Shown piece after piece: positions 17,862 through 36,394 of a stretch of DNA of 36,639 nt. Each line of letters starts with the position of its first letter. Positions within the stretch are counted from its first letter, which is position 1. The stretch lies in IMG/VR virus record IMGVR_UViG_2548876956_000006; one strand, 5' to 3'. The position numbers and the translations under genes were made by a program. Source of the DNA: a virus. Its lineage: Duplodnaviria > Heunggongvirae > Uroviricota > Caudoviricetes. The notes beneath the pieces were generated by a model. It was given only the letters and a program-made list of their open reading frames with translations, searched no databases and had not been told where the DNA came from.

Positions 17862-17962
17862 CGACTGACCCCGTCAGCGGGCGGCGTGCGCGGTGTTCCG
17901 GTTTGACTCCGTGACCGTTTACACCGCGCACCCACCGCCCGATTTTTTCAGGAGTGAACCCC

Positions 17963-18657: not shown

Positions 18658-18659
18658 CA

Positions 18660-19776: not shown

Positions 19777-19927
19777 CACTCCCACATGGGGAAATCTCGG
19801 TATATGGGGCGACCGCCTTCTGGATGCACTGGAAACCTGTAACGCGGATAAACGGGCCATTGAATTACTGGAACAGCGCAGGCTGCAACGACTGAACAAC
19901 GAGGATAACAACCATGCTGAAAACTGA
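19637..19927 (+). CDS. lysC: o-spanin lipoprotein (Rz1/LysC-like), overlapping the i-spanin in the +1 frame
   Basis: MNAPSLCLTLVLLTGCAG signal peptide with lipobox LLTGC, Pro-rich mature region; starts inside the i-spanin gene and extends beyond it. Confidence 0.6.
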   Translation: MNAPSLCLTLVLLTGCAGTQNAPLPAPSVRLIPQTLTIPVMPPPFPDTPTWGNLGIWGDRLLDALETCNADKRAIELLEQRRLQRLNNEDNNHAEN

Positions 19928-20381: not shown

Positions 20382-21009
20382 GGCATTCACCCGCGTGGAT
20401 GAAACCTTTGAGGCCATCCGCGACAGCCTGAATCAGCAGGCCATCAATAACATCGCCAGAAAGCTGGCACAGGATTTACGCCGCGCCCAGCAGGCGCGTA
20501 TCCGGTCACAGAAAGCGCCGGACGGGACCGCGTGGACACCACGCAGACGCCGCGTAACCCGGATACAGGAACGCATTCGCTTTATCTGGAATAACGAAGC
20601 ACGCACGCTGAAAAACTGGCATCACGACACGGGGAAATACGGGCGAACCATTACCGGGTGGGATGAGGATAAAAACAATATCCGCACGTTTTACCGAGAT
20701 GACATCGACCGTTTTCTGGAAATACGCACCCGGCGCATCAACCAGGACAGCACCAGGCGCGTCCCCATGTTCGTAAAACTGCGCACCGCCCGCTACCTGA
20801 AAGCCCGTGCAGATGCTTCCGGTGTGACGGTGGGTTACAGCGGCGTGGCCGCACGTATTGCACGCGTTCATCAGTTCGGTGAGCGCGATCAGGTTGCGCC
20901 GGGCATTTTCACCGATTACCCGGTACGTGAGCTGCTGGGTATCAGCCAGGCAGATGAACGCCTGATTTATAACACGGTGCTGGGCCGGATTGCGGAGGTT
21001 GTACGGTGA
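20365..21009 (+). CDS. S: Tail completion/virion morphogenesis protein, P2 gpS-like
   Basis: Position between R and V; start could be the downstream ATG at 20374. Confidence 0.75.
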   Translation: MKAMDKAFTRVDETFEAIRDSLNQQAINNIARKLAQDLRRAQQARIRSQKAPDGTAWTPRRRRVTRIQERIRFIWNNEARTLKNWHHDTGKYGRTITGWDEDKNNIRTFYRDDIDRFLEIRTRRINQDSTRRVPMFVKLRTARYLKARADASGVTVGYSGVAARIARVHQFGERDQVAPGIFTDYPVRELLGISQADERLIYNTVLGRIAEVVR

Positions 21010-21587
21010 GCGCAGAACTCATGCGACTGCTGAGCAACATCATCCGCACCGGGATCATCTCTGAAGTTGATGAGGAATCCTGGTGCGTGCGCGTTCGCAG
21101 CGGCGAACTGGAAACAGGCTGGTTGCGCTGGAACACCACGCGCGCGGGAGCCTTCAATGTGTGGCTGCCGCCATCACCAGGCGAACAGGTGGTAATTGCC
21201 TGCATTGGCGGCAACCCGGAAACCGCCATGATAATTGGCAGCCTGTGGAGTGATGCCATTCCGGCCCCCGGCAAAAGCCTGAAAGAAATCGTGGTCAGCG
21301 CGCCGGATGGCGCGGTGTTCCGCTACGACGCGGCCGCAGGCGCACTGAGCGCCAGCGGCATGAAAACAGCCACCCTGCAGGCATCCGTCAGCGTGACACT
21401 GGATACGCCCGTCGTGGAATGCACAGACCTTCTGAGAACGGCGACGCTTGACGTCACAAAAGGGGGAAAGATGAGCGGCAATATCACGCACAGCGGCGGC
21501 AATTTCACCTCAAACGGCATCACAGTGCATACGCATAAACACGGTGGCGTTAAAGGTGGCAGCGATTCGACAGGAGGCCCGCAGTGA
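21006..21587 (+). CDS. V: Baseplate assembly/spike protein, P2 gpV-like
   Basis: 193 aa; conserved position; overlapping start/stop with neighbours. Confidence 0.8.
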   Translation: MSAELMRLLSNIIRTGIISEVDEESWCVRVRSGELETGWLRWNTTRAGAFNVWLPPSPGEQVVIACIGGNPETAMIIGSLWSDAIPAPGKSLKEIVVSAPDGAVFRYDAAAGALSASGMKTATLQASVSVTLDTPVVECTDLLRTATLDVTKGGKMSGNITHSGGNFTSNGITVHTHKHGGVKGGSDSTGGPQ

Positions 21588-21934
21588 CAACCCGCTACAC
21601 AGGAATGAACCCGGACGGAACGGGAAACCTGAACGATATGGAGCACCTGAAACAGTCAGTCAGGGACATCCTGACCACCCCGCTGGCAAGCCGGGTTATG
21701 CGACGGGAATATGGCAGCCTTGTGCCTGATTTGATTGACGAACCCATGAATAACACCACGCGTCTGCAATGCATGAGTGCTGCCGTGATTGCGCTGACAC
21801 GATGGGAGCCCCGCATTGCCCTGGATGCCATCGACGTTGTCTGGAAGGCAGGAGGCCGCGCCGGGGTGACGCTGTCGGGCACTGTCATGCAGACCATGCA
21901 GAATGTTGAATTAACCATCACGCTGAGGGAGTAA
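21584..21934 (+). CDS. W: Baseplate wedge protein, P2 gpW-like (GP25 family)
   Basis: 116 aa; conserved position. Confidence 0.8.
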   Translation: MTTRYTGMNPDGTGNLNDMEHLKQSVRDILTTPLASRVMRREYGSLVPDLIDEPMNNTTRLQCMSAAVIALTRWEPRIALDAIDVVWKAGGRAGVTLSGTVMQTMQNVELTITLRE

Positions 21935-21937
21935 ATC

Positions 21938-22834
21938 ATGCCTGCCGTTGACCTTTCACAGTTACCGGAACCCGCCATCATCGCGGAGCCTGACTTTGAG
22001 GCAATTCTGGCTGACACAAAGGCCATGATGATTGCGTCCTATCCCGCCGAACAGCGTGAAGCCGTTTCCGCCGCGCTGGAGCTGGAATCGGAACCCCTTA
22101 ACGTTATCGCTCAAACCATGTCGTTTCGTGAAATGCTGTTACGCCAGCGGGTCAATGAGGGTGCACGCGCCTGCATGCTAAGCCACAGCGCCGGGACAGA
22201 CCTGGACAACCTCGCGGGCAATATGAACACAAAGCGCCTGGTTATCACTCCGGCAACGGATACCACCGACGCAGTGATGGAAAGTGACACCTCGCTGAGA
22301 CTACGGGCGCAACGGGCATATGACGGTCTGAGTGTTGCTGGCCCGTCAGGTGCATACGAGTATTTTGCACGCAGCGCCAGCGGTCTGGTACGCGATGCGC
22401 GGGCCATCAGCCCGTCTCCGGCCAACGTGACGGTTTCCATCCTGTCCACTGAGGGCGACGGCACAGCAACGGAGGCGTTGCTTAATACCGTTCGCGCCGT
22501 TCTGAATGCAGAGGATACCCGCCCGGTGGCCGACCGCCTGACCGTACAGAGTGCCAGAATCGTGACATGGCGGCTGAATGCAAAACTGTACTTTTACCCC
22601 GGCCCGGAATCCGAACCTATTCTGGCCGCGGCGGAATCGTCGTTCAGGAAGTGGCTGTCTGAGCAGGGGCTTATCGGTCAGGACGTGGCGTTGTCCGCCA
22701 TTGCTGCCGCACTGCATGTGCACGGTGTGCAACGCGTGGAGATAATCGAACCCACACAAAATATGGCCATCAGCGACATACAGGCGGCGCGCTGTGAGTC
22801 ATTCACCATCAGCGAAGGTGGGCGTAATGAGTAA
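21938..22834 (+). CDS. J: Baseplate protein, P2 gpJ-like
   Basis: 298 aa; conserved position. Confidence 0.85.
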   Translation: MPAVDLSQLPEPAIIAEPDFEAILADTKAMMIASYPAEQREAVSAALELESEPLNVIAQTMSFREMLLRQRVNEGARACMLSHSAGTDLDNLAGNMNTKRLVITPATDTTDAVMESDTSLRLRAQRAYDGLSVAGPSGAYEYFARSASGLVRDARAISPSPANVTVSILSTEGDGTATEALLNTVRAVLNAEDTRPVADRLTVQSARIVTWRLNAKLYFYPGPESEPILAAAESSFRKWLSEQGLIGQDVALSAIAAALHVHGVQRVEIIEPTQNMAISDIQAARCESFTISEGGRNE

Positions 22835-23357
22835 TTCACTGTTACCGCCATCAGCCAGCAATTTCATGCGTTGTGCCGAAGCTGTCGGAACGCGCATTAC
22901 AGACATTCCGGTAGACCTCAACACGCTGTGGTCGCCGGACACCTGCCCGGTGCATCTGCTGCCTTATCTCGCCTGGGCATTTTCCGTTGACCGCTGGGAT
23001 CGCAACTGGCCGGAAGAGACAAAGCGACAGGTGATTCGTGATGCATGGCTGATACACCGACACAAAGGGACCATCAGCGCACTGCGCCGGGCCATTGAGC
23101 CGCTGGGATACCTCATTCGTGTGTCTGAGTGGTGGGAGTTCGGCGGAGAACCGGGAACATTTACCGTTGAAGTCGGCACGCTGGACAGTGGCGTGACGGA
23201 GGAAATGTATCTGGAAATGGAGCGGTTGATTGCTGATGCCCGCCCGGTCAGCCGCCACATGACAGGGCTGAATATCATTCAGGAGATCCCGGGGGATATT
23301 TTCACGGCGGCAGCAACTTACGACGGTGAAGTCATTACCATTTATCCGGACGATTAA
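22827..23357 (+). CDS. I: Baseplate/tail protein, P2 gpI-like
   Basis: 176 aa from the ATG at 22827 (SD gaaggtggg), overlapping the J stop. Confidence 0.8.
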
Positions 23358-23359
23358 GC

Positions 23360-25186
23360 ATGAGTACCACAACACGAAAATTTAAAACCATTATCACTGA
23401 TACTGGTGCCAAAAAATTAGCTCAGGCAGCCGCGCCAGATGGTAATCCTGTCCGCCTGACTCACATGGCCGTGGGCGACGGTGGCGGCACGTTGCCCACA
23501 CCAGACAGTAAGCAGACCCGTCTGGTGCATGAGGTGTGGCGACATACTGTTAATCGCGTCATCCTGGACGCAACACATCAGAACCGCATTATTGCGGAGC
23601 TGGTTATTCCTCCTGAAACGGGCGGATTCTGGATCCGGGAAATTGGTGTATTTGATGAGCACGGCGATTTGATCGCGGTGGGCAATACTGCGGAAAGTTA
23701 CAAGCCAGCCGTTGCCGAAGGATCCGGACGTGCACAAACATTTCGCACCATTCTGACCGTATCCAGCACTGCCACCGTGGCGCTTACCGTGGATAACACC
23801 ATGGTTATGGCCACAGTGGATTACGTGAATGACAAACTGAAAGAACATGAACAGTCACGACGTCACCCGGACGCCTCGCTGACCGCAAAAGGCTTTGTTC
23901 AACTCAGTAGCGCCACCAACAGCACGTCTGAAGCACTGGCCGCAACGCCGAAAGCGGTCAAGGCAGCCTATGACCTTGCTAACGGGAAATATACCGCACA
24001 GGACGCCACTACAGCGCGGAAAGAACTTGTCCAGCTCAGTAGCGCCACCAACAGCGATTCAGAAACGCTGGCGGCAACACCAAAGGCGGTAAAGGCAGCC
24101 TATGACCTTGCTAACGGGAAATATACCGCACAGGACGCCACGACGGCACGAAAAGGAATAGTCCAGCTCAGTAGCGTCACTAACAGTGATTCTGAAACGC
24201 TTGCCGCGACTCCGAAAGCGGTGAAAGCCGCTAATGACAATGCAAACGGGCGTGTGCCCTCTGGACGTAAGGTTAATGGCAAATCACTAGCCAATGATGT
24301 CAATGTTACATCGCAGGATATTTTTAACGGCCAGAGTATTGAGATTGGTGCAAATCAGAATCTGGATAATTACAAAACACCGGGGCTGTACCATCAGCCA
24401 TTGAATGCCAATACAAGCGCAGCGCTGAAATACCCGGAGAATTTTGCGGGTACACTGGTTGTGCTTAAAAATGCCGGGATAACACAGATTTACTATGTGT
24501 ATGACACATCCAGAAGCTATACCCGCAGCCAGTACTCAACGGGTGACTGGACACCATGGACGCCACAAGATTCATTTCCGGTAGGTGCGGCGATACCGTG
24601 GCCTTCTGATTCAGTGCCTACAGGCTACACCGTTATGCAGGGGCAGACTTTTGATAAAACAGTCTACCCCCTGCTTGCAGTCGCTTATCCGTCTGGTGTG
24701 ATCCCTGATATGCGTGGCTGGACGATTAAGGGCAAACCCGCCAGTGGTCGGGCCGTATTATCTCAGGAACAGGACGGCATTAAATCACACTCCCACAGTG
24801 CCAGCGCGTCCAGTACGGACTTGGGGACAAAAACCACATCATCATTTGACTACGGCACCAAGACGTCCAGTTCATTTAACCATGGCACTAAAACCACGAA
24901 TAGCGCCGGGGATCATTCACACAATATTCCTGTTGGCAACACTGGCGCTGGTAATGGTGTTTCGGCTGGTTATAACTCAGGGCTTGGCACTGGAAAAACA
25001 AGTAACGCAGGGGGGCACTCTCACACAGTAAATATTGGCGCACACACTCATACGGTAGGAATTGGCGCACACACACACTCCGTTGCGATAGGTTCACACG
25101 GGCATACCATCACCGTTAACGCTACGGGTAACGCAGAAAACACCGTAAAAAACATCGCATTTAACTATATTGTGAGGCTTGCATGA
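23360..25186 (+). CDS. H: Tail fibre protein, P2 gpH-like, with phage-fibre tandem repeats and a Gly/His-rich C-terminal tip
   Basis: 608 aa; three tandem ~44-aa repeats ([40 protein letters not shown]); C-terminal GxHxH repeats ([25 protein letters not shown]). Confidence 0.9.
23894..24245 (+). repeat. Three tandem ~132-bp in-frame repeats inside the tail-fibre gene
   Basis: Near-identical units starting near 23894, 24026 and 24158; coding (phage fibre repeat), not CRISPR. Confidence 0.7.
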
Positions 25187-26085
25187 TTACGCTCATTCTT
25201 TCTGCACCAGTAACAGAAATGGCTGAAGCATTTAAGCAGGTATTTGCAAATGCAGATAGTGTGAATATTGTCGGAAAGCCATTTGAAACAATCAGAGAAT
25301 TTGACTGCATGGTAAGTGCGGCAAATAGTTTCGGCTTGATGGATGGTGGCGTTGATGCCGCCATTACCGCATTCTTCGGTACTCAGTTACAGTTCCGCGT
25401 TCAGAATCATATTCTTCGTGAATATCTCGGCGAACAGCCTGTAGGTTCTGCATTTGTCATTGAAACGGGGCATAATCATCACCCCTGGCTGGTACATGCG
25501 CCAACAATGCGTGTTCCGTTGACAATTGACGGAACAGACGCTGTATATAACGCAACCTGGGCCGCTCTGCTTGCCATCTTTCAACACAATAAAAACGCAA
25601 CGACAGACATGAAAATAAAAACAGTGGTATTCCCTGCAATGGGGGCCGGATGTGGTCAGGTGCCGTTTGAAAGTGTTGCCCGACAGATGAAGCAGGCATG
25701 GGATAACTTTAATAAAAAAACAGAATCAATTAACTGGGAATACGCACAATCTCGCCAGTCGGCAGTATTTGGCACATATGCATACTGTCCGGGTAATTCC
25801 GTTTGCCGTTATGCGGATACTAAATATATTGGATGTGGCGATTATCGGACGTGTTGCTCTCGTTCCGGGCAAGTCTGTATTAACCCTGAACATCAGGCTG
25901 ATGATGTACTGATACAACATCAGGCTAATAACCGTTTTCGCCCTGGTTCGCATATACACCGGATTAATCCAGAAAATCCCGTAGGTAATGTCACCTCTGG
26001 CGCACATAGCCACGGAAGTAGCATCGTTATTGGTACTCCCACCCATACGCTCAATAAACAATATTCTGTCTCTGATATTAAGTAG
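25183..26085 (+). CDS. Macro-domain (ADP-ribose-binding/hydrolase-like) protein with a Cys/His-rich fibre-tip-like C-terminal region
   Basis: ATG overlaps the H stop (ATGA). [32 protein letters not shown]...WLVHAPTM and [19 protein letters not shown] match the three hallmark macro-domain segments (compare E. coli YmdB). The C-terminal ~120 aa carry GSHIH and GAHSHG motifs like the H tip. Confidence 0.75.
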
Positions 26086-26093
26086 AGGTGAAC

Positions 26094-26672
26094 ATGGATT
26101 TCAGAATGAGTGAACAATCACGGACCATAAAAATTTATAACCTGCTGGCCGGAACTAATGAATTTATTGGGGAAGGTGATGCATACATTCCACCTCATAC
26201 AGGTCTGCCTGCAAACAGTACCGATATTGCACCACCAGATATTCCGGCAGGCTTCGTGGCTGTTTTCAACAGTGATGAGGCATCGTGGCATCTCGTTGAA
26301 GACCATCGGGGTAAAACGGTTTATGACGTGGCATCAGGGGACGCGTTATTTATTTCTGAACTCGGTCCGTTACCGGAAAATGTTACCTGGTTGTCGCCGG
26401 ATGGAGAGTGTCAGAAGTGGAACGGCACATCCTGGGTGAAAGATGCAGTAGCAGAAAAACTGTTTCGGGTACGGGAGGCAGAAGAAACAAAAAACAGCCT
26501 GATGCAGGTAGCCAGTGAGCATATTGCGCCACTTCAGGATGCCGTAGATTTGGATATTGCGACGGAGGAAGAGGCATCGTTACTGGCTGCATGGAAGACA
26601 TATAGGGTATTGTTGAATCGTGTTGATACAACAGTAGCAGCGGATGTTGAGTGGCCAGTCGCCCCACAATAA
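26094..26672 (+). CDS. G: Tail fibre assembly protein, P2 gpG/Tfa-like
   Basis: Conserved position after the fibre gene; SD gaggtg is 5 nt before the ATG at 26094. Confidence 0.75.
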
Positions 26673-26710
26673 AAAGAAAAAGCCATCGACAGAAATATCG
26701 ATGGCTTTAT
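26670..26710. terminator. Bidirectional hairpin terminator between G (+) and the acetyltransferase (-)
   Basis: Hairpin agccatcga-cagaaata-tcgatggct with an A-run on one side, giving a U-tract for the minus-strand transcript. Confidence 0.5.
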
Positions 26711-26715
26711 GTACT

Positions 26716-27288
26716 CTATTTATACAATACAACACCACTCTTTTTAGTTATATATGTGCAGTTTGATGGTATATCTTTATTTATAAAAGACATTGCACCT
26801 ATTTTTACATTATCCCCAATTTTACGTGATAATCCAATGATGCAACAATTAGCTCCGATATCAACGTTACTACCAATTTTCACTCTTGAACCAGGCATGT
26901 CACCATCTATCTGTCCAATGGTAGTATTCTGTCGTAATACCAGATTTTCACCCGCATCAACAGCAAAATGAACAACAATTCCAGCATGATGGGGAATTGT
27001 TAACCCTTTTCCAATATTTGCTCCCAATCCTATTTCACAACCAAATTTGTTAATTATTTTACTGTTTAACTTTTTGGCTGCTTTCTTATGTGATTTATTA
27101 CCATTAATATACATTTCGTTAGCCAACCGCCACCAGAACAGGAAATTCCGGTTACGCTGCTTTTTCTCTCTTAAAAGCCTCCAGATATCCATACGTTTCC
27201 GCCGAATCACTTCATGTTTCCAGAAGTTTTTTAAATTAGTAGAGTTCCCAAATAAAACAAAGTGAATTGCCATTAAGTAAGACAGCAC
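26716..27288 (-). CDS. Hexapeptide-repeat acetyltransferase (serine acetyltransferase/WcaB-like, left-handed beta-helix); cargo in the P2 Z/fun position
   Basis: Repeated [LIV]G-x4 hexads (IGLGAN, IGKGLT, IGSNVD, IGANCC, IGLSRK, IGDNVK) and the LTIPHHAGIVVHFAVDAGENLVLRQNTTIG core; AT-rich; probable GTG start after SD AAGGAG (the ORF track extends to 27321). Confidence 0.7.
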   Translation of the reverse strand: MLSYLMAIHFVLFGNSTNLKNFWKHEVIRRKRMDIWRLLREKKQRNRNFLFWWRLANEMYINGNKSHKKAAKKLNSKIINKFGCEIGLGANIGKGLTIPHHAGIVVHFAVDAGENLVLRQNTTIGQIDGDMPGSRVKIGSNVDIGANCCIIGLSRKIGDNVKIGAMSFINKDIPSNCTYITKKSGVVLYK

Positions 27289-27444
27289 GAAAATCTCCTT
27301 AATTATTATTTCAGACCACACATGTTATAAGGTTGAGAGATTATAAAATCCTGTTATTTGTTATTCAAAAACAATTTTCTGAGAAGGACATACAGCAGCA
27401 AGTCGCCAGTCACCTTCATCAGGAAATTGGCGACATACGTTAAA

Positions 27445-27939
27445 TCAGAGCAGCCCCTTAACTGAGCTGGCCGCGCTGTTAAGGGATGATGTCACCTTAT
27501 CTTTGAAGCCGGACAACATATCGCTGAACGATGAGGATTGCAGGCGCTCCCGCAAATCCTCATCACAGCGTTCAAGAGTCAGTGAAAATTCTATCTTTTT
27601 CGCCTTACCGTAGCGATCAAACTCGGAGCGGGTCGTATTCGTTTCAGTCAGTACATACATGCCGTAAATCTGCCCGACGCCATCAATCAGAGGCCAGGGG
27701 CGTCCTGTATATGCCTGCGTGGTCAACAACGACAGCGACACTTCGCCACCTGTAATCTCAGGATAAAGAACACCCGAAAGAACGATGCGATCATCACCTG
27801 CACCGATATACTGCCAGCTTGCCGAACGGTTAACGCGTTCATTTTTCACATGTCGCCAGCTTTTGTTTTGCTGTAACTGCTGATGCGGCAACGTGCGCAA
27901 CTCAAAAACAAACATGCCGTAGATCATCATCATGGCCAT
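27445..27939 (-). CDS. U: Tail protein, P2 gpU-like
   Basis: 164 aa; LRTLPHQQLQQNKSWR...VLYPEITGG pattern resembles P2 U as recalled. Confidence 0.8.
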   Translation of the reverse strand: MAMMMIYGMFVFELRTLPHQQLQQNKSWRHVKNERVNRSASWQYIGAGDDRIVLSGVLYPEITGGEVSLSLLTTQAYTGRPWPLIDGVGQIYGMYVLTETNTTRSEFDRYGKAKKIEFSLTLERCDEDLRERLQSSSFSDMLSGFKDKVTSSLNSAASSVKGLL

Positions 27940-27945
27940 GACTCC

Positions 27946-30762
27946 TCAATCTTTATCGTAAAAACTGCCACGTCCGGCACGGTCGCGTCGTTCCAATTCT
28001 GCCCTGACCATTTCACCGACCAGTTTCGCCAGTTCGCGGGGATTCTGCGTAACAACGTTATGCAGATGAACATGAATTTCACCGCCAAATCCGGAGGCAA
28101 CAGGCTCCCGGTTACGGGAAGTTGCAGGAACTGATGCCACTGGCGATCGTATGGCCTCCGCCACCGGGCGGGAGCTGGCCGCAACAACAGGGACCAGCGC
28201 CGGAGACAGCGGAGCCGGAACCACGGGTGTGATATTAATTGCGGGGGCAGGCTTACTGACCTGCGCAATCTTCCGCTCCTGCCACTCCCCACGAACAGCA
28301 AGTGCGCGGGGCAGGTTCTTAAAGACAATATCGCCGAGGCCAATGCGTTTTTTCGTCTCATCAACCAGCTTACCTGTGTTATCAGCAATTTTGCTGAGTC
28401 TGCGTAGCGTCCCGGTATTGCTGTCTGTGAGCGGTTTATTGTCTTTGGGTTTATCACCTCCTGTGCCATTGCCATTTTCCACAGGCTTCGGCGGATTGAT
28501 TTTCGCCAGGTCCCCCTGAAGCAAGGCAACCTTGTCCTGAAGAATGGCCGCACGCTGTGCGTCTTCGATTCTCTTTCTCGCCCTTTCCGCTTCATCCGGA
28601 AGAACACCGAGTTTTTCAAGTATCCACGCCAGCGTATCCAGCAACATTTTTGCAGGCGTCAGAACAAGCTGTAACGCGCCACCAAGAACGTTACCGAATA
28701 TCTCGCCAGCACTGGTACATTTATCCAGCGTTTCCTTGCTGGACTCCATCGGTGACAGCAGCGATTTAAACCAGTTAAACACCTGGCTGATCCCGCTTCC
28801 GATTGCGTCAAAAACAGGACCAAACCGTTCAAAGGTTTCGCGCAACGGGATCAGCCTTTCCATAATCCCGCTGAACACCCCGGCAAAAAATGCCCTGATG
28901 GGATCCCAGTATTTCCAGATAAGAACGGCAGCTCCGGCAAGCGCAGCCACGATAAGACCAACCGGACTGAACAGCGCCCCGATAGCGCCTCCCAGCAAAG
29001 AAACAGAACCCGTCACCATTCCCCACAGCGCAGGCAACACCCTGCTGACATTCATTGACCGGGTAAGAATGTCGAAACCAAGACGCAGGGTGGCCAGCTT
29101 CCCGTAAAGCACCCCAATAACCAGCGACAACGAGCCAATCGTTGCAGTCATTGCCAGCAACGCACCGCCTGCTATCAGTAGCTGGCGCGTCAGTACCGGA
29201 TGGGCCTGCGCCAGCGAGGTGATTTTTTCAAGCACCCGCGTGAGCCACTGCGTGACAGAACGCAGCGGACCGTCAACCAGATCACTGATGCGAATACGAA
29301 GACCTTCCCATGCGCTGTCGAGATTTTTCAGGTCCCCATCAAGATTATCGGCCATTACTTTTGCAACGCGATCGGCCTCTCCCCTTGCCCCCTGCAATTC
29401 TCTGGTCAGTTTTTGCAGCTCTCCTGAACCAGCCGCCGCAATAAGCGTCTGCAAACCAACGAACGCCTCTTCTCCGGCGATGTCCTTGAAGAAGGAAACC
29501 TGGTCCACCTGTCCGTATTTTTGTGTCGCCTTGTAGAGATCAAGCAACACATCCTCCATCGGGCGCATTTTGCCTCTGGCGTCAGCAACTGACACCCCCA
29601 GCTCTTTCAGCGCATCAGCCGCAGCTTTTGGCGGTGATGCAAGGCGGGACAGACTTGCGCGCATGGCTGTACCAGCATCGCTTCCACGAAGACCATTATT
29701 GGCAAGCATCCCGGCCATGGCTGCCGCTTCTTCAAGACTGATACCAAGTTTTGCGGCAACCGGACCGGTATACTTCATGGTTTCGCCCAGCGCGCGTAAA
29801 TCAGTATTGGTCCGGGTGAATGCTGCTGTCAGCGTATCGCCAACACGGTCCATTTGATCGGCTGTCAGGTTGAACTGTGTGAGGATATTGGAGCCTATAT
29901 CAGCCGTCTCGCCGAGTTCGACGCCACCTGCCAGCGCCATATTAAGAACACCGGGCAATGCGGCCTGAATGGCCTGCGGAGTAAAACCAGCCATTGCCAG
30001 AAAGCTCTGCCCACTGGCGGCATCACTCGCAGTAAACTGTGTTTCAGAGCCAAGTTTTAACGCCTGCTCACGCAGCGCCTTAAACTGCGGGCTGTTTTTG
30101 TCGATTCGCGTCAGTGCCTGAACGCGGGACATCTCTTTGCCGAACCCGATCGCAGGCTGCAAAAAACGCCCGGCAGCATAGCCGCCCGCCGCTGCCGCAC
30201 CAATTGCCAGCACACCACCTGTTTTCAGTTTTCCCGCTGTTTCCTGCGCGCGCGAATACCGCTCACGTACCCGCGTTACACGCGCAAGCGCCTGCCGTTC
30301 GCGTTCAAGCTGGTTGTTGTACTGTTCGGTGCGTCTGATGGCCTGCTGGATGGTGTTATCACTGCCTGTCAGGGAAATGCCGTGGCGTTTCAGCTCTCCG
30401 CCAAGCTCCCGCATTTTCTGAATTTCCCGTGTGCGCGATTCATTCAGGCGTTCAAGCCGGGTGCTTAACTGCTGCATCAGCTTTTGTTGTTTTTCGCTGA
30501 GCACTGTACCCGTGCGTTGTAACTGATTAAGGGCGTTAAGCTGGCGTCGTGCTTTCACGATGCCCGCATCCGCTTTACTGACAGCGTCGCGGGCGCGCTC
30601 AAATGAACGCGCCTGACGCTTGAGATTTTTGATCGCCCCCTGCGTTCGCTGGATGGAGTCACCAAACTGCCCCATCAGGCGGCGGGCGTTTTCGGCAGGC
30701 CGGGTCAGCCTGTCAACGGCGCTGAAAGCGACCCGGATATCAAGAGTCTTCATTATCTGCAT
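27946..30762 (-). CDS. T: Tail tape-measure protein, P2 gpT-like
   Basis: 938 aa, helical/Ala-rich with a central hydrophobic segment; conserved position between E' and U. Confidence 0.9.
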   Translation of the reverse strand: MQIMKTLDIRVAFSAVDRLTRPAENARRLMGQFGDSIQRTQGAIKNLKRQARSFERARDAVSKADAGIVKARRQLNALNQLQRTGTVLSEKQQKLMQQLSTRLERLNESRTREIQKMRELGGELKRHGISLTGSDNTIQQAIRRTEQYNNQLERERQALARVTRVRERYSRAQETAGKLKTGGVLAIGAAAAGGYAAGRFLQPAIGFGKEMSRVQALTRIDKNSPQFKALREQALKLGSETQFTASDAASGQSFLAMAGFTPQAIQAALPGVLNMALAGGVELGETADIGSNILTQFNLTADQMDRVGDTLTAAFTRTNTDLRALGETMKYTGPVAAKLGISLEEAAAMAGMLANNGLRGSDAGTAMRASLSRLASPPKAAADALKELGVSVADARGKMRPMEDVLLDLYKATQKYGQVDQVSFFKDIAGEEAFVGLQTLIAAAGSGELQKLTRELQGARGEADRVAKVMADNLDGDLKNLDSAWEGLRIRISDLVDGPLRSVTQWLTRVLEKITSLAQAHPVLTRQLLIAGGALLAMTATIGSLSLVIGVLYGKLATLRLGFDILTRSMNVSRVLPALWGMVTGSVSLLGGAIGALFSPVGLIVAALAGAAVLIWKYWDPIRAFFAGVFSGIMERLIPLRETFERFGPVFDAIGSGISQVFNWFKSLLSPMESSKETLDKCTSAGEIFGNVLGGALQLVLTPAKMLLDTLAWILEKLGVLPDEAERARKRIEDAQRAAILQDKVALLQGDLAKINPPKPVENGNGTGGDKPKDNKPLTDSNTGTLRRLSKIADNTGKLVDETKKRIGLGDIVFKNLPRALAVRGEWQERKIAQVSKPAPAINITPVVPAPLSPALVPVVAASSRPVAEAIRSPVASVPATSRNREPVASGFGGEIHVHLHNVVTQNPRELAKLVGEMVRAELERRDRAGRGSFYDKD

Positions 30763-30976
30763 TCCCGCTGCGAAGTGCCGCCCGCTCGCGCCAGCTAACC
30801 ACTTCGCCGGGCGTCATCATGAAGATTTCGGCGGGCGACCAGTTAAAAATGGCGGCGATATCCGCCACCAGATCTTCGATGTGCTCAAAGCACACCAGGG
30901 TGATTACGCTGCCGTCTCCTGCACGCTCTTCGCGCCAGAGTCTGGCTCGCTCATAAAATTTACAGCCACAGCGCAC
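30740..30976 (-). CDS. E' segment: frameshift-extension part of the tail assembly chaperone, overlapping the T start
   Basis: ORF overlaps the first 22 nt of T, as expected for P2 E'. It is reached only by recoding; see the finding on frames. Confidence 0.45.
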   Translation of the reverse strand: MRCGCKFYERARLWREERAGDGSVITLVCFEHIEDLVADIAAIFNWSPAEIFMMTPGEVVSWRERAALRSGNADNEDS

Positions 30977-31018
30977 AACTGAATAAAATCGCGTGACGAC
31001 ATTTTTTTAATCATCACT

Positions 31019-31279
31019 TCATCCAGTCGTGGCGAGGTCACGCGAGGGCAACAGCGTGAACATGGTATCCGCTTTCAGATTCAGCACATCAGACAGCGAC
31101 AGACCACGCAGGGATCCAGCCTGCTCAATAGCCCCGGTGATCTCCACATACGTGATTTTTTCGCCACCACGCTCAATTGGTCGGGTCAGTTTTACGCCAC
31201 GTTCGACAGCCATATCCTCACCTGCCGTCACATCATCCGCCACGGTGTTATTCCGGGTTTCAGTATCGATGTCTTTCAT
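31019..31279 (-). CDS. E: Tail assembly chaperone, P2 gpE-like (N-terminal part; the C-terminal part appears to continue in another frame)
   Basis: 86-aa ORF after FII; GSLRGLSLSDV...LLP resembles gpE; terminates earlier than expected while an adjacent frame continues protein-like. Confidence 0.65.
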   Translation of the reverse strand: MKDIDTETRNNTVADDVTAGEDMAVERGVKLTRPIERGGEKITYVEITGAIEQAGSLRGLSLSDVLNLKADTMFTLLPSRDLATTG

Positions 31280-31334
31280 CAGTTGTCTCCTTTTCAGTCA
31301 GGGGCGACGCACTGCGCCGCCTGCATATTACTTA

Positions 31335-31847
31335 TCAGCCAAGCCCAAGCGCGGAACGGATACGGTCAGGCACGATGTCCTTGCCGTCCTTCCGATAAAT
31401 GAAGTTCAGCAGGTCAATCTCCCACAACGGGCGATCGTTAACACTCAGCTTGTAGTAGGTGTTTTTAATGGCGTAAGTGTGTGATGTGGCTTCGCCCTGT
31501 TTGGCTTCCCCCATATCAATTTCCGTCACACGTCCGCGCATTTCGACTTCATACAGGTCGCTTTCTGCATCGGTGTAATATTCACCCGCAAAACGCAGCA
31601 GCGTGCCGTCAATCGTGCCACCATACTTAAGGAACAGCTCACGAACTGCGCCCCCCATGACAAAGCTCGCATCAAGCGCGGAGTCGTCCAGACCGAGATC
31701 AATACTTACCGCCCCCATCATGCCACCACCACGGTAGCTGTCGGTTTTGCGCGTCAGTTTGGGCAGAGTGACGGACGTCACCTTACCCACTTCGTTTTCA
31801 CCATCCACAAACAGCGTAAAAAAGCGAAGATGTTTTGGCACAGCCAT
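31335..31847 (-). CDS. FII: Tail tube protein, P2 gpFII-like
   Basis: 170 aa; conserved position after the sheath gene. Confidence 0.85.
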   Translation of the reverse strand: MAVPKHLRFFTLFVDGENEVGKVTSVTLPKLTRKTDSYRGGGMMGAVSIDLGLDDSALDASFVMGGAVRELFLKYGGTIDGTLLRFAGEYYTDAESDLYEVEMRGRVTEIDMGEAKQGEATSHTYAIKNTYYKLSVNDRPLWEIDLLNFIYRKDGKDIVPDRIRSALGLG

Positions 31848-33031
31848 CAGGCACCTCCCAGCACCGCAAATGCGGGTTCAAAGTATTCATCAGTAAACGT
31901 CTGGTAAAGCTCCATGTCTTCCAGTGGCGGAACGGGCGTATATTTGTAGCGAATACGCACACGCCCCTGACGTAAATCCGTGGTGCTGTTATCCACCACG
32001 TCATACCAGCACTCCGCGCCAATCAGTTTCCCGGCAGTCACCAGTGAATCCAGTTTTGCCCTGATGGCACTGATAACATCCTTCACGTTCGCAGGCGTCA
32101 GTGGACTGTCGATGGTTTCAAACTGCGCTTCCGCAATTGAATCAGCCAGCACCTGTGCGGTTCGGGTATACACCTCAAAGATGTAGGCGTTCGTTTCCGG
32201 TGTGCGGTTGCCCCAGAAGCGGAACCCGTTGCGACGAATAATGGTCGTGATTTCTTTGTTGTTGAGGCTGTTGGCATCGCTGTCTTCGGCCTGCAACGAC
32301 CAGAACACATGCCTCGACATCCCCAGCACATTTTTAACCGGAACGTTGGACAGTGATTTGTGCCATCCCTGCTCATGGTCAATGTACGCACGAAGGCCGC
32401 ACGCATAGGCAGGCGCGGGGAACGTTTCGTTTTTGCCACTTTTCGGGTTGTAGGCGATGAAGTCCGGCCATAAGAGCATCACCTCACGTTCGTTGAATTT
32501 CTGGCGGTAGGTAATCGCCTCAGCCATCGTGTTACAGCCGTGACATGAGGCATACACAAACGCGCGCAGTTTACCCGCAATCACGCACAGGGATTTTGTC
32601 ACCGCCTCCGTGTCCAGCTCCGGCGCGGCCAGAATACGCGGACGGTATCCGATGCTTTCATCCTGCTCTGCAACAAGCAGCGCATACATCCCCGTATAGC
32701 TGCCGTCATCCTCAGAACCACCGATAACCAGTTGATCCTGCGTCTTTCCGTCTTCTTCTTTGTGTTCAGCCACGCGAACGACGATCACCTTTGTGCTCAC
32801 CTGGTCTGCGATGGCCTTAAGCGCACGATAAAGCGTCCCCGTTGTCCCGCATTTTCCCAGCACGTCATTAACGCGGGTCAGCAGTGTGGGCTTATTCAGC
32901 GGGAACTGCTCCGCGTCCGCATCATCCGCCGTTGCCACGATACCGATAACGCTGGAATCAACATCGTTAATCGCTGTTACCAGGTCGGTACTTTCCGTGA
33001 CACGGGCACCATGAAAACGAGTTTCACTCAT
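31847..33031 (-). CDS. FI: Contractile tail sheath protein, P2 gpFI-like
   Basis: 394 aa; FPLNKP, LRAF, LMLLWPDF, EQGWHKSLSNV, RRNGFRFWGNRT, YTRTAQV and YKYTPVPPLE closely parallel P2 FI as recalled. Confidence 0.9.
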   Translation of the reverse strand: MSETRFHGARVTESTDLVTAINDVDSSVIGIVATADDADAEQFPLNKPTLLTRVNDVLGKCGTTGTLYRALKAIADQVSTKVIVVRVAEHKEEDGKTQDQLVIGGSEDDGSYTGMYALLVAEQDESIGYRPRILAAPELDTEAVTKSLCVIAGKLRAFVYASCHGCNTMAEAITYRQKFNEREVMLLWPDFIAYNPKSGKNETFPAPAYACGLRAYIDHEQGWHKSLSNVPVKNVLGMSRHVFWSLQAEDSDANSLNNKEITTIIRRNGFRFWGNRTPETNAYIFEVYTRTAQVLADSIAEAQFETIDSPLTPANVKDVISAIRAKLDSLVTAGKLIGAECWYDVVDNSTTDLRQGRVRIRYKYTPVPPLEDMELYQTFTDEYFEPAFAVLGGA

Positions 33032-33188
33032 AGCTTCAGCCCCTTGTATCCGTTAAATGATTCGGCAACAATCATCACCCACCACGCGCGTAATCTCACC
33101 CCTGCGCCATTCTCCCGCCACGGCGACAACAAAAAGCAGTAACCCCCTCCGCACGCACATGCGACCATGCCGCACAGGGAGGGAACAG

Positions 33189-34298
33189 ATGACCGACACC
33201 ACCATGCAATTGCTCAGTCAGGGCACAGACCCCATGAAAATGCCGGATTTTGATATTCTCGCCGAGGGTAAAACGCTGTCCGGCGTGGCAGAACGCCTGA
33301 TGGGCCTGTCACTGACCGACAACCGGGGATTTGAGGCGGACCAGCTCACCATCACGCTGGATGATGCGGATGGCCAGTTGCAGCTACCGCCACGGGGCGC
33401 GCGTCTGACGGTTCTCATTGGCTGGAAAGGGGAACCGCTGACAGAAAAAGGCACTTACATTGTTGATGAAATCGCTCACGAAGGACCGCCGGACAGGCTG
33501 ACTGTTTCAGCCAGAAGCGCAGATTTTCGGGATGAATTTAACGTTAAACGTGAGGTGTCCTGGCATGATGTGACCGTTGAGCGTGTGGTATCCGCCATCG
33601 CTCATCGGTATGGTCTGAAACCGCAAATCAGCGAAATGCTGATGGATATCGAAATCGACCACGCCGACCAGACCGAAGAAAGCGACATGTCCTTCCTTAC
33701 GCGCATGGCGGAAATGCTGGGCGCAATCACCACGGTAAAAAGCGGTAATCTGTTATTCATCATGCCCGGCGGTGGCGTGAACGCACAGGGCCAGCCGTTG
33801 CCATCGTTCGCCATCACACGCAGCAGCGGCGATCGCCATCAGTTCCGCATTGCTGACCGCGAGGCGTATACGGGGGTACGCGCTTACTGGCTTGATCTTA
33901 ATTACGGGAAAAAGAAAAAAGTCAGCGTGAAATGCCGCAAACCGCCAAAACCCAAAAAGGAGAAAAGCAGCAGCCGTGAAGGTGATTATATGGAAGGTGC
34001 GGAAGGCAATGTGTTTGTGTTACGCAAGACCTATCAGAACGAGCAGGCAGCAAGACGCGCAGCGGCGGCAAAGTGGCAGCAGCTACAACGCGGAGCCGCA
34101 TCATTTTCCATCACGCTGGCGCGTGGACGCGCAGAACTCTACCCCGAAATGCATGGCACGGTAACAGGATTTAAAAGCGAGATTGATAATCAGGACTGGA
34201 TTATTGCAAAAGCCGAGCACACCATTGATAACAGCGGCTTTACCACGCAGCTTGAGCTTGAAGCAAAAATCCCGGAATGGATAGCAGAAACAGAGTGA
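33189..34298 (+). CDS. D: Tail protein D (late control gene D family)
   Basis: LTDNRGFEADQLTITLDDADGQ, SARSADFR, SWHD, QTEESDMSFLTRMAE, ITRSSGDRHQF, AYTGV and GFTTQLELE parallel P2 D; start taken at the ATG with SD GGGAGG (the ORF track starts at 33057). Confidence 0.85.
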   Translation: MTDTTMQLLSQGTDPMKMPDFDILAEGKTLSGVAERLMGLSLTDNRGFEADQLTITLDDADGQLQLPPRGARLTVLIGWKGEPLTEKGTYIVDEIAHEGPPDRLTVSARSADFRDEFNVKREVSWHDVTVERVVSAIAHRYGLKPQISEMLMDIEIDHADQTEESDMSFLTRMAEMLGAITTVKSGNLLFIMPGGGVNAQGQPLPSFAITRSSGDRHQFRIADREAYTGVRAYWLDLNYGKKKKVSVKCRKPPKPKKEKSSSREGDYMEGAEGNVFVLRKTYQNEQAARRAAAAKWQQLQRGAASFSITLARGRAELYPEMHGTVTGFKSEIDNQDWIIAKAEHTIDNSGFTTQLELEAKIPEWIAETE

Positions 34299-34498
34299 AC
34301 CATTCAGATGTATTAGTGCAGACCTGAACGGCCACGCTTACGAGATAGAACAAAATCTAATATGGCAGTCCGCCCTGTACCAGTAAGCGGACATTGTAAC
34401 AGTAAAGCAAATTAAAGCCTTAGATGTGTTAGTTTAAGCATTGTTTTCTGCTACGTTTTCTTTTCTCTTTTATTTTTCTTTGCGTTTCCTTTTTCATT

Positions 34499-35890
34499 TT
34501 ACGCTTTTTTATCAATATTTTTTTTGAGATCACTCATATGGTATGACCACTTAATCAGACTATCTGGATATTGCTGATCAAAAATAATCCGTGTTTCGTA
34601 ACCATTTCCAATAAAAACACTCTGTCCATCAACACTAGAAACTACCCCCTTCCCATTGATGGAAAGCATACTCATAGGATTAATCTTCGGAGATGGAAAA
34701 TCCAATAACTCATAAATCCCGGGGTATTTTTTATTTGCTCTTTCTACGAAACGACGATGATCGAAACACAGCACAACAATTAGATTGCCATTAATGATAT
34801 CCAGAAGCAATTTATCAGGTAGGTTCAAACTAAAAAATGGACGTGATAAAGCATCTGAAAAGCTATCAAGAATATTAAACACTCTCCCCGATATTCTAGA
34901 TACCTCCATCCATCCATTAAAACCGCAAAAACCCATATTAGAATTAATATATGCCCCAAGGAATAAACAATCATTAATGTTAGTAATCGCCCAAGTTTTA
35001 CCGTTATATATCTCATACCAAAGCTCAATAATCTTATCTGTATAAAAATCGGGACAAAAATCTCTGTCATGAATTGTTACTTGAGACTGAAAAAAGTTAT
35101 CAAATCCCTTACCAGTCTCAATGACATCTATCACATTTTGAGCTCTTTTAAGTTGACGCTTAGCTCTGTCATAGTGTTTCAAGTCATTTTTATCAAGGTC
35201 TTTTCTATAAATCTCATCAAAATGAAGACATTTACTTTGCACTGAGAACATAGCCGCCTTTGAAAACTCTATATTTTTCTTACCACTTTTTATTTCAATT
35301 AAAGTTATGCCTTGCTGAGGTATTAACGCAAGTAAATCACCAGTATGTACAAACGTAGTAATATCAGTGATAACAGCTATAGCCATCGGATCAGCATTGA
35401 TTTCATCTGCTACCACCATTGAATCATGTATATTAAATATTGTCAGATTGTCAGTATTTCTATTTATAGGTAAACGTCTTATAAACGAGTGTTCATTGCG
35501 GAATATCGCCCATACAATTGAATCAATACACCTACGTAAAATCCTAATTTCTAGTCTAGTCCTTTCAATATTGCGTATACACTTCTTCTTTGTTTCATAG
35601 TCCTTTTTTGAATGGGCACAATTCTTTTCTAACTCCAGATCCTTGATTTGAGAAAGCCTGATAATGAGTTCATCAGCTATGATCCTTTGCGCCCGCTTCC
35701 ATCCACTTAACAGGTGTTTGAAGTTTTCGATGGAATCAAGCTCCCTTTGCTGAGCTCCCACATTTTCCCCTTGCCGTATCAGCATCATTAACGTCTTGAT
35801 GAGTTCATTGAACTCAGAAGGAAGATGTTCCCATATATTTATGAACGGCCTATACTTTGCCCGCATTTTATCATTGTTATTTTTTGCCAT
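34499..35890 (-). CDS. Uncharacterised ~465-aa protein, AT-rich cargo between D and ogr; possible nuclease-like (PD-(D/E)xK-type) core
   Basis: Long ORF with ~33% GC on the strand opposite to D and ogr; no family recognised; segment TGDLLALIPQQGITLIEIKSGKK fits a D...E-x-K pattern. Start ambiguous (GTG at 35914 or ATG at 35890). Confidence 0.55.
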   Translation of the reverse strand: MAKNNNDKMRAKYRPFINIWEHLPSEFNELIKTLMMLIRQGENVGAQQRELDSIENFKHLLSGWKRAQRIIADELIIRLSQIKDLELEKNCAHSKKDYETKKKCIRNIERTRLEIRILRRCIDSIVWAIFRNEHSFIRRLPINRNTDNLTIFNIHDSMVVADEINADPMAIAVITDITTFVHTGDLLALIPQQGITLIEIKSGKKNIEFSKAAMFSVQSKCLHFDEIYRKDLDKNDLKHYDRAKRQLKRAQNVIDVIETGKGFDNFFQSQVTIHDRDFCPDFYTDKIIELWYEIYNGKTWAITNINDCLFLGAYINSNMGFCGFNGWMEVSRISGRVFNILDSFSDALSRPFFSLNLPDKLLLDIINGNLIVVLCFDHRRFVERANKKYPGIYELLDFPSPKINPMSMLSINGKGVVSSVDGQSVFIGNGYETRIIFDQQYPDSLIKWSYHMSDLKKNIDKKA

Positions 35891-35937
35891 CTTCAATTGA
35901 TAATCTCCTCTCACAATATTGTCATCACTAACAAATT

Positions 35938-35955: not shown

Positions 35956-36133
35956 AAGATAATTGATAAACAAAAATCCTGCCACGTTGTTATTCAAATA
36001 TTGGAAAACTTATCGCCCGTTTAGACTTCATCTAACATCTTCTGACTTTATCACCATCCTTCACTTAAAGTGGGAAGGAGTTGGAATCTGCATTGATGAA
36101 ATTTAGAATAGCACCACCTAAAGGGAGGTTGCT

Positions 36134-36394
36134 ATGTTCCGTTGTCCGCTTTGTGGCGCATCTGCCCGTATCCGCACAAGTCGTCCGGAAAATGATTCAA
36201 ACACCGTCCGGCAAAAGTATTACCAGTGTAACAACCTGGAATGCGGCGTATGCTTCTCAACACTGGAAGCTTTCCATAAATTCACATCGAAACACACCTC
36301 AGGCGTTCGATCTTCAGAAGGTATCCCGTGGCATGAACTGCCAACGTCACACAGGGGAAACAATCAGATGAGTTTGCCTTTACCTCAGAATTAA
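36134..36394 (+). CDS. ogr: Ogr/Delta-family zinc-finger late transcription activator
   Basis: MFRCPLCGASARIRTSR...YYQCNNLECGVCF matches the Ogr C2C2 zinc-finger pattern (P2 Ogr MFHCPLCQHAAHARTSR...YHQCQNVNCSATF as recalled). Confidence 0.85.
   Translation: MFRCPLCGASARIRTSRPENDSNTVRQKYYQCNNLECGVCFSTLEAFHKFTSKHTSGVRSSEGIPWHELPTSHRGNNQMSLPLPQN

Follow-up and report, generated by a model that had tools for sequence, protein, structure and literature searches.

Inverted FI to U tail genes in a P88-like E. coli prophage: a probable fixed ancestral inversion and a predicted bidirectional late promoter

The late genes of phage P2 are controlled by four Ogr-dependent promoters with the consensus TGT-N12-ACA, and a single activator site can serve the divergent promoters PP and PO (PMC3931495). 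The PP/PO dyad (3063-3080) stands halfway between two late genes that diverge from it; the −10 elements follow 34 nt past each of its ends, and transcription starts at 3016 (minus strand) and 3127 (plus strand). Late promoters of this type have a partial dyad centred near −55 and a −10 element but no recognisable −35, and their activity requires Ogr (or Delta) and the alpha subunit of RNA polymerase. In P2, and in Kapieceevirus, the genes H, G, U, T, E, FII, FI, D and ogr are all found on one strand, whereas in P88 and its relatives (Xuanwuvirus; also PhiR44_2) H and G on the plus strand are followed by U, T, E', E, FII and FI on the minus strand, and then by D and ogr on the plus strand. Escherichia phage P88 is inducible and lytic (PMC5285337) and Citrobacter phage phiSM is spontaneously active (PMC6456863), so that this layout supports a working phage. 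The inverted layout is already known from genome maps that have been public for years; the inversion is nowhere mentioned in the texts on P88, phiSM, SEN4/5, PP4/KSP20 and Peduoviridae inversions, as far as these are searchable.

The DNA analysed here (the window, 36,639 nucleotides) belongs to an E. coli prophage of the P2 family that is P88-like and probably of the Xuanwuvirus type. Of positions 1001-36500, 70.4% aligns to P88 at 95.5% identity in colinear blocks of the same orientation, giving an overall identity of about 67%, a crude one-way estimate that includes the non-phage flank and the cargo. The ICTV guideline for a genus is about 70% identity over the genome. The conserved late genes of P2-like phages comprise Q, P, O, N, M and L, the baseplate genes V, W, J and I, the fibre genes H and G, FI, FII, E/E', T, U and D, and an Ogr/Delta-type activator. 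Of these, H, G, U, T, E, FII, FI, D and ogr were recognized by Pfam and PHROG scans, and P, O, R, S, V, I, H, FI, FII, T, U, D and ogr match P2 at 25-61% identity (tblastn); the single co-directional FI-FII-E-T-U-D operon of P2 is absent from the window. The relevant genes and the terminator at the left boundary are the following.

23360-25186, plus strand: H (Pfam and PHROG scans)
26088-26672, plus strand: tail-fibre assembly gene (Pfam and PHROG scans)
26679-26708: hairpin terminator at the convergent junction of the H/tail-fibre-assembly transcript (plus strand) and the minus-strand transcripts
26716-27321, minus strand: cargo gene, hexapeptide-repeat serine/sugar O-acetyltransferase-like (Hexapep, Pfam; phrog_2154)
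27445-27939, minus strand: gpU tail protein (PF06995, 133 bits)
27946-30762, minus strand: gpT tape measure protein (PF10145; phrog_28)
30740-31279, minus strand: gpE / E+E' tail chaperone region (E here 31019-31279, phrog_103)
31335-31847, minus strand: gpFII tail tube (PF04985, 159.6 bits)
31847-33031, minus strand: gpFI tail sheath (three sheath domains, Pfam; phrog_23)
33057/33189-34298, plus strand: gpD baseplate hub / late control D protein (PF05954; phrog_52)
36134-36394, plus strand: ogr late-gene activator, zinc finger (PF04606, 52.5 bits against a cut-off of 26.3)

The profile scans confirmed the strands given in the initial annotation, with FI, FII, E, T and U on the minus strand and H, G, D and ogr on the plus strand. 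Because FI, FII, E, T, U, D and ogr share one strand in P2, the strand difference is real, and the block is indeed inverted with respect to P2 and D detached from the F operon (FI to U minus, D plus), as had been claimed. For H, the fibre-assembly gene, D, ogr, att and int, order and orientation are those of P2. Details of the earlier picture had to be corrected. The inverted tail block proper extends from U to FI (27445-33031), since the gene at 26716-27321, which had been taken as its left end, is by Pfam and PHROG an acetyltransferase cargo gene and not a tail gene. Moreover, ogr does not adjoin D: a low-GC ORF of 471 aa (34499-35914, minus strand), which found no match in Pfam, NCBIfam, PADLOC, PHROGs or PDB sequences, separates the two, and a sigma70-like promoter was predicted ahead of ogr at 36081-36109. 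A Macro-domain gene sits between H and the fibre-assembly gene, and the sole recombinase-like gene of the window is an integrase-sized ORF at its far left, outside the 23.3-34.3 kb region covered by the ORF scans. A tRNA scan of the window found none.

The product of the cargo gene is EpsC/CysE/WcaB-like, with scores under the curated cut-offs, and its homologue in relatives is annotated as serine acetyltransferase. With 0.43, the gene is lower in GC than the tail genes (about 0.55), and the promoter scan placed a sigma70-like promoter of its own at 27368-27340 (TTGAAT-17-TATAAT). A DNA invertase, suspected at 26716-27321 from size and position, was rejected by the profile scans. As for the bidirectional terminator proposed at the left boundary, the minus-strand half stands as a strong intrinsic terminator, with a 13-pair stem followed by TTCTTTTTAT (a U-run) and a folding energy of −21.3 kcal/mol (z −4.9); the plus-strand half is weak, with −16.4 kcal/mol (z −5.8) but a poor U tract.

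E and E' had been listed as present genes, but they are not intact here because a one-base insertion truncates E. One extra base in the run 31046-31048 leads to a stop at 31019 and a product of 86 aa. With one base taken out, E encodes 124 aa, with its stop at 30904-30906, and contains an in-frame slippery heptamer, A_AAT_TTT, at 30961-30955, where slippage would yield a 179-aa E+E' protein ending at 30740 and overlapping the start of T. Of 594 E. coli genomes that have this allele, none has the extra base; the frameshift is private to this copy, and it bears on whether this prophage can still assemble tails.

Alignment to P2 and related phages, as the initial annotation had proposed, showed inversion relative to P2 and colinearity with the P88 relatives. 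Positions 27439-34298 of the window align to 27594-34433 of P88 in the same orientation as both flanking colinear blocks, and P88, 500465-2, P884B11 and phiSM are identical in layout and colinear over this segment at 93-96% nucleotide identity. Protein identities to P88 are 99% for U, 94% for T, 100% for FII, 99% for FI and 96% for D; the core proteins tested are 94-100% identical, with the exceptions of the variable fibre genes and of E, whose frameshifted copy in the window reaches 75%. The window ogr is 95% identical to that of P88, where it is unannotated, and 42% identical to P2 Ogr. The FI-D spacer is 157 bp long in P88-like phages as in the window, and among those compared one base differs, outside the dyad described below. 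Differences from P88 are the Macro-domain gene, the 471-aa orphan ORF between D and ogr, the frameshifted E, and the G/U junction, which in P88 holds an invertible fibre cassette and its invertase and in the window the acetyltransferase gene.

The same inverted FI-U block and divergent D-ogr were found in phiT5282H (Novemvirus), Kp4871-3 (Reginaelenavirus, 3LV2017 type) and SEN5 (Senquatrovirus, SEN4/SEN5), with hosts in Enterobacter, Klebsiella and Salmonella and proteins 27-78% identical to those of the window (T lowest); the strand patterns of P88, SEN5, Kp4871-3 and phiT5282H, taken from tblastn or from record annotation, match that of the window. Serratia phage KSP20 has a D 74% identical to that of the window, but its 6-kb partial record is known here from D identity alone and not from gene order. 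It had been allowed at the outset that the arrangement might turn out to be normal for a known P2-like subgroup, and this is the case for four ICTV genera of Peduoviridae. A co-directional FI-to-D operon is a trait of P2 itself rather than a criterion of the family, to which these genera with the inverted order belong.

Within E. coli the layout is common. Colinear copies of the FI/D junction, 95-99% identical, occur in 1109 of 5426 complete genomes, about one fifth, and these are the genomes with an intact junction among the 1380 that matched it. A synthetic query for the P2-type U-to-D junction matched none of 1414 genomes carrying these genes as a single place. A U+D fusion used with tblastn matched 518 phage records, in which U and D are adjacent in 387, with 49 extra places where they are split, while about 82 of the 518 gave no score for adjacency. 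Among the records listed, D is at least 62.7% identical to the window D in every split one, whereas at 51% D identity or less, with both genes detected, U and D are adjacent in all; the adjacent ones listed include P2, 186, phiCTX and phages of Burkholderia, Ralstonia, Mannheimia, Stenotrophomonas, Xanthomonas and Wolbachia. The inverted order is, on these comparisons, fixed and ordinary for one enterobacterial clade of P2-like phages. What had been read as an anomaly of this DNA, with broken synteny and possible misassembly, is the ordinary order of the P88 clade, present in more than 1100 E. coli genomes.

The spacer between FI and D holds the following elements, listed together with the site between P and O that served as reference.

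15013-15030: paralogous late-activator dyad in the P/O divergent spacer, TCTGGCCGTTTTCTTACA
33032-33188: FI-D divergent intergenic region, 157 bp, putative bidirectional Ogr-type late promoter
33071-33076, minus strand: predicted −10 GATGAT of the FI-directed late promoter, 34 nt past the dyad, predicted start near 33064
33111-33128: late-activator dyad TCT-N12-ACA, TCTCCCGCCACGGCGACA, extended ...ACAACAAAAA
33163-33168, plus strand: predicted −10 GACCAT of the D-directed late promoter, 34 nt past the dyad, predicted start near 33175

A divergent promoter region had been postulated at 33032-33188, and the spacer does look like one, with a dyad and flanking −10-like hexamers. A search for Ogr-type dyads had been suggested for this region. 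Exact TGT-N12-ACA has 7 matches in the window, against 9.3 expected, and none of them is within 33032-33188; the site at 33111-33128 is one mismatch off the consensus, with a TCT that is also found in P88, and the orthologous dyads of Kp4871-3 and SEN5 are exact. Comparison of the spacers across relatives, made after the exact-consensus search, revealed the extended pattern T[GC]T-N12-ACAACAA, with two exact matches in 36.6 kb, one in the FI/D spacer and one in the P/O spacer (15013-15034), a specificity that is partly circular as the pattern was derived from these same sequences. Independent support, at the level of sequence conservation, is given by diverged relatives: in P88, phiT5282H and Kp4871-3, with proteins 46-100% identical to those of the window, the pattern falls in the same two spacers. 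No third or fourth site was found upstream of R (19777-19913) or of V at up to one mismatch, and an equivalent of PV seems to be absent because S and V overlap.

The −10 hexamers were placed by the rule of a hexamer 34 nt after the dyad and a start 7 nt further, which reproduces the annotated P2 starts of PP and PO. In each of the four genera the 34-nt offset yields xAxxxT hexamers on either side of the FI-D dyad, kept on the FI side as GATGAT, GATTAT or AATGAT and found in relatives on the D side as GATCCT, AACCAT or GACGAT; they are weak matches to TATAAT, and in the spacer alignment they form conserved islands amid otherwise diverged sequence. A generic sigma70 scan of the FI-D spacer gave no −35/−10 pair. 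Dyad, hexamers and a CGCGCG element, which recurs at the P/O site on its P side, make up a spacer architecture common to all four genera. The dyad centre (about 33119.5) is 69.5 bp from the ATG of D, whose Shine-Dalgarno sequence GGGAGGG is at 33177-33183, and 88.5 bp from that of FI, compared with about 83 bp at P2 PF; this FI distance fits PF having moved with the block. The cognate Ogr/Delta zinc-finger activator is encoded by the window itself. Taken together, these features suggest that the spacer is a bidirectional late promoter like P2 PP/PO, in which Ogr would bind at the dyad and transcription would start at the two predicted positions.

The shared layout, the absent U-D junction and the lack of flanking repeats or, among the ORFs scanned in 23.3-34.3 kb, of an invertase together argue for one ancestral inversion of FI-U, neither switchable nor artefactual and with a shared FI-D site, which we consider very probable for the P88-like clade, the single origin resting on similarity bands and four checked genera. 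PF-FI-FII-E/E'-T-U would have been inverted once, in the common ancestor of one enterobacterial Peduoviridae clade, and subsequently fixed; one breakpoint would lie directly upstream of the PF activator site and the other between U and D, so that D would now begin next to that side of the dyad-symmetric Ogr-binding element of PF which had faced upstream. The single site would then most likely drive two divergent late transcripts, just as the single P2 site does for PP and PO: leftward FI-FII-E-T-U, probably reading on through the acetyltransferase gene as far as the terminator at 26708-26679, and rightward D, or in most relatives D-ogr.

An order that is fixed across a clade and present in about a fifth of complete E. 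coli genomes reflects neither misassembly nor switching. That this assembly placed a 6-kb block in the wrong orientation can be set aside for practical purposes, since the same orientation and junction sequences recur in independently sequenced phages of four genera, with the FI/D junction intact in the 1109 genomes and the alternative junction in none of the 1414; nothing specific speaks for such an artefact, the only hint of imperfect sequence being the single-base homopolymer difference in E. A programmed segment, with a site-specific recombinase flipping FI-U as Gin, Cin and Hin do theirs, has an equally negligible chance. A DNA invertase does adjoin U in P88 and some relatives, but in P88 it adjoins a duplicated, inverted tail-fibre/assembly cassette (24860-26695), which is a classic fibre-switching segment, and not FI-U; the window, SEN5 and phiT5282H lack an invertase there and yet keep the same orientation, and again the alternative orientation occurs in 0 of 1414 genomes. 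In agreement with the initial annotation, no recombinase or serine DNA invertase was detected among the ORFs scanned in 23.3-34.3 kb (Pfam, PHROG), and no inverted repeats flank the block: no pair has its arms close to 27.4 kb and 33.1 kb, and the strongest ones (14-21 nt, 76-93% complementary) all lie away from its boundaries. Several independent rearrangements, or a relocation of D-ogr in place of one FI-U inversion, would have as precedent the late-operon rearrangements of other P2-like phages, such as Smp131 (PMC3931495). They are nevertheless very improbable, as D-ogr-(att)-int and H-G are arranged just as in P2, in order and in orientation, which leaves FI-U as the only difference, and the split genomes form one similarity cluster for D, FI and P, with D 63-99% identical inside it and at most 52% identical to canonical genomes; the dyad, the CGCGCG element and the −10 hexamers are, moreover, common to the spacers of all four genera.

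More room is left for doubt about how D is transcribed once a real and fixed inversion is accepted. The dyad might serve FI only, with D read from an independent promoter, perhaps a constitutive or early one of sigma70 type, or from a second, unrecognised activator site, which seems unlikely but deserves serious consideration: the D-side hexamers GACCAT, GATCCT, AACCAT and GACGAT are poor −10 matches, and the predicted D leader is just about 14 nt long. The generic scan revealed no sigma70-like site in the spacer, a result that also leaves D without an obvious alternative. However, the D-side hexamer stands at the exact 34-nt offset in four diverged genera, along with the conserved CGCGCG, and P2 provides a direct precedent of one site for two divergent late promoters. 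Thus, the evidence leans, by no great amount, towards an inversion by which PF became a second bidirectional promoter, Ogr-dependent and in the style of PP/PO, with D-ogr self-reinforcing and with the symmetry of the dyad allowing the inversion to be tolerated. This reading of a bidirectional PF/PD promoter, which the clade layout predicts, is not described in the literature as far as searchable. If it is correct, the late genes of the P88 clade would run from two bidirectional promoters, P/O and FI/D, replacing the P2 scheme of one divergent pair plus PV and PF, and D-ogr would be an Ogr-activated, self-reinforcing operon. The point of phage biology would be a modest one, namely that a dyad-symmetric activator site lets an inversion split a late operon with regulation kept. 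Beyond that, the layout carries little weight except for correct annotation, where a P2-centred reading wrongly marks every P88-like prophage as rearranged or misassembled, although about every fifth complete E. coli genome has one.

Compared with P2, the locus shares the gene set of the F operon at 33-48% protein identity (U 46%, D 48%), with the same order inside FI-U, the placement of D-ogr, att and int at the same genome end, and, as predicted for the window, an Ogr-type late control through a dyad near −55. It differs in that the seven genes that form one rightward operon from PF in P2 are here divided, FI-U being inverted and D separate and divergent from FI, in the left half of the dyad (TGT in P2, TCT in the window), and in the lack of an S-V intergenic space for PV. 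The PP/PO-like architecture of P2 would accordingly be met twice in the window, at P/O and at FI/D, the FI/D copy being a predicted one and a by-product of the inversion.

The window is a P2-family prophage in which the tail genes FI, FII, E/E', T and U (the FI-U block) lie on the strand opposite to H and to D/ogr, as the initial annotation had stated. The strand assignment is correct according to Pfam and PHROG gene calls, and in the P2 reference FI, FII, E, T, U, D and ogr run rightward throughout. The start of D was placed at ATG 33189, rather than at the opening of the ORF, because of homology and a Shine-Dalgarno sequence (GGGAGGG).

Features of the window (H, the tail-fibre assembly gene, U, T, E, FII, FI and D from Pfam and PHROG scans)
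Left end: integrase-sized ORF
12151-14948, minus: Q and P
15070-26672, plus: long run of late genes, O through the tail-fibre assembly gene
23360-25186, plus: H
25183-26085, plus: Macro-domain protein, 300 aa (PF01661, 66 bits; phrog_2613)
26088-26672, plus: tail-fibre assembly gene
26679-26708: hairpin, a classical terminator on the minus strand only
26716-27321, minus: hexapeptide serine/sugar O-acetyltransferase-like cargo gene, low GC
27368-27340: promoter-like site of the acetyltransferase gene
27445-27939, minus: U
27946-30762, minus: T
31019-31279, minus: E
31335-31847, minus: FII
31847-33031, minus: FI
33189-34298, plus: D (ORF opens at 33057)
34499-35914, minus: orphan ORF, 471 aa, low GC (35-40%)
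36081-36109: sigma70-like promoter of ogr
36134-36394, plus: ogr (Pfam Ogr_Delta, 52.5 bits)

The Macro-domain gene sits between H and the fibre-assembly gene, overlapping the H stop, and is also annotated in close E. coli relatives.

The layout had been regarded as unusual, namely as broken P2 synteny. The description holds relative to P2, but not as an anomaly, since the same arrangement is the norm of a P2-like subgroup, the P88-like clade (P88 and relatives in Xuanwuvirus, Novemvirus, Reginaelenavirus and Senquatrovirus); the initial annotation had itself named such a norm as grounds for refuting it. Positions 27439-34298 are colinear with, and 93-96% identical to, Escherichia phages P88, 500465-2, P884B11 and PhiR44_2 and Citrobacter phage phiSM. 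The P88 annotation matches the window, with H and G on the plus strand, U, T, E', E, FII and FI on the minus strand and D on the plus strand, and blastn aligned the two genomes in three colinear blocks of the same orientation, flanking and crossing the tail block. The strand pattern was also found, by tblastn with the window proteins or from record annotation, in Salmonella phage SEN5 (Senquatrovirus), Klebsiella phage Kp4871-3 (Reginaelenavirus) and Enterobacter phage phiT5282H (Novemvirus), whereas P2 and one Kapieceevirus carry all these genes on a single strand. Because P88 is inducible and lytic (PMC5285337) and phiSM spontaneously active (PMC6456863), the layout is compatible with a working virus. 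Public genomes classified by ICTV already show it; no text discussing the inversion was found in the literature searched. Two details of the records deserve mention: in P88 RefSeq (NC_026014.1) ogr is unannotated, though a 95%-identical ORF lies at 34476-34733 directly after D, and the FI start annotated for phiT5282H (6623) seems to be misplaced by 45 nt in the upstream direction, given the tblastn alignment (6578).

Misassembly of the block is excluded for practical purposes, since the FI/D junction (32500-33700) is uninterrupted in 1109 of 1380 matching complete E. coli genomes, with 95-99% identity in nearly all of the 1109, while a synthetic P2-style junction, joining the 3' end of U to the 5' end of D, was contiguous in none of 1414 genomes, its halves always lying in separate places. 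Programmed inversion is likewise excluded for practical purposes by the lack of this alternative orientation, together with the lack, already noticed initially, of inverted repeats at the block ends and of an invertase in this region of the window. P88 does contain an invertase, which adjoins a duplicated, inverted fibre/assembly cassette, but its FI-U orientation is that of relatives without the enzyme.

A fusion of U and D used as query against 50,697 phage records matched 518, with the two genes adjacent on one strand in 387 and split in 49 additional places. Among the matches listed, D was at least 62.7% identical to the window D in all split records, and U and D were adjacent in all records with D at most 51% identical and both genes detected. 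The adjacent set includes P2, 186 and phiCTX, and phages of Burkholderia, Ralstonia, Mannheimia, Stenotrophomonas, Xanthomonas and Wolbachia. The four genera rank alike by D, FI and large terminase P identity. D-ogr, att, int and H-G all keep the P2 orientation, so that FI-U alone turned, and a single inversion in the ancestor of the enterobacterial clade would be the simplest history.

The initial annotation also proposed a divergent promoter region at 33032-33188, the 157-bp FI-D spacer. In P2, late promoters have a partial dyad (TGT-N12-ACA) at about -55, and PP and PO have a single activator site in common (PMC3931495). The exact motif is absent from 33032-33188; however, when the window and four relatives were compared at their FI-D and P-O spacers, a shared element emerged, T(G/C)T-N12-ACAACAA, and the window has exact copies only at 15013-15034 (P/O) and 33111-33132 (FI/D). 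P88, phiT5282H and Kp4871-3 have exact copies in the same two spacers, and the core in Kp4871-3 and SEN5 reads as the canonical TGT-N12-ACA. Calibration on P2 places the -10 hexamer 34 nt past each dyad end, with transcription beginning 7 nt further on, which recovers the start sites annotated for PP (3016) and PO (3127). At this offset, across the four genera, the FI side presents GATGAT, GATTAT or AATGAT (CGATGA in Kp4871-3, with GATGAT one base further) and the D side GACCAT, GATCCT, AACCAT or GACGAT. Start sites are thereby predicted in the window near 33064 (minus) and 33175 (plus), and the spacer is probably a bidirectional Ogr-type late promoter, PF/PD, the sole mildly new element of this analysis. 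The dyad centre lies 88.5 bp from the FI ATG, compared with about 83 bp in P2 PF, which fits PF having travelled with the block; D would thus now abut the upstream face of PF.

All four genera conserve a CGCGCG(CG) element that lies between the dyad and the predicted -10 hexamers of the promoters directed at P and D; the window and P88 have it towards FI as well (window 14975-14992 and 33085-33094/33153-33166). The late promoters of this clade may use it as a spacer or discriminator. No late-activator dyad, even with one mismatch, was found upstream of R (19777-19913) or V, and the S and V genes share 4 nt (21006-21009). A PV equivalent seems absent from the clade; O through the fibre genes may form a single transcription unit of about 11.6 kb, and the P/O and FI/D bidirectional sites may be the only late promoters left.

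E, listed initially together with E', is not intact: it stops at 86 aa through one extra base in a C/G run (31046-31048, minus) compared with P88 and a 98.5%-identical E. coli prophage, and the tail chaperone is uncoupled from the E' frameshift product. With the base removed, E has 124 aa, identical to the protein annotated in the relative, and the heptamer A_AAT_TTT (30961-30955) is in the right frame for a -1 slip, with a predicted 179-aa E+E' product ending at 30740, over the T start. The allele is present in 594 complete E. coli genomes, all of them lacking the extra base, which is either a private inactivating mutation, the prophage then being defective, or a homopolymer sequencing error.

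Three further points of the initial gene map require correction. ogr does not adjoin D, as it does in P88, phiT5282H, Kp4871-3, SEN5 and most E. coli copies; the two are split by the orphan ORF on the opposite strand (34499-35914), which has no matches in Pfam, NCBIfam, PADLOC, PHROGs or PDB sequences and is possibly a cargo or defence gene of an uncharacterised kind. The D-ORF-ogr-hok/gef arrangement was found in only 17 complete E. coli genomes. At the other end, 26716-27321 belongs not to the tail block but to the low-GC hexapeptide acetyltransferase cargo gene, and the supposedly bidirectional terminator at this boundary is classical on the minus strand but not on the plus strand. Two larger, unrelated E. 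coli phages also carry this acetyltransferase gene beside their fibre-assembly gene. In the window it occupies the convergent G/U junction, where P88 has instead the invertible fibre cassette and invertase, and SEN5 and phiT5282H have nothing inserted; this junction looks like a cargo hotspot comparable to the P2 Z/fun site.
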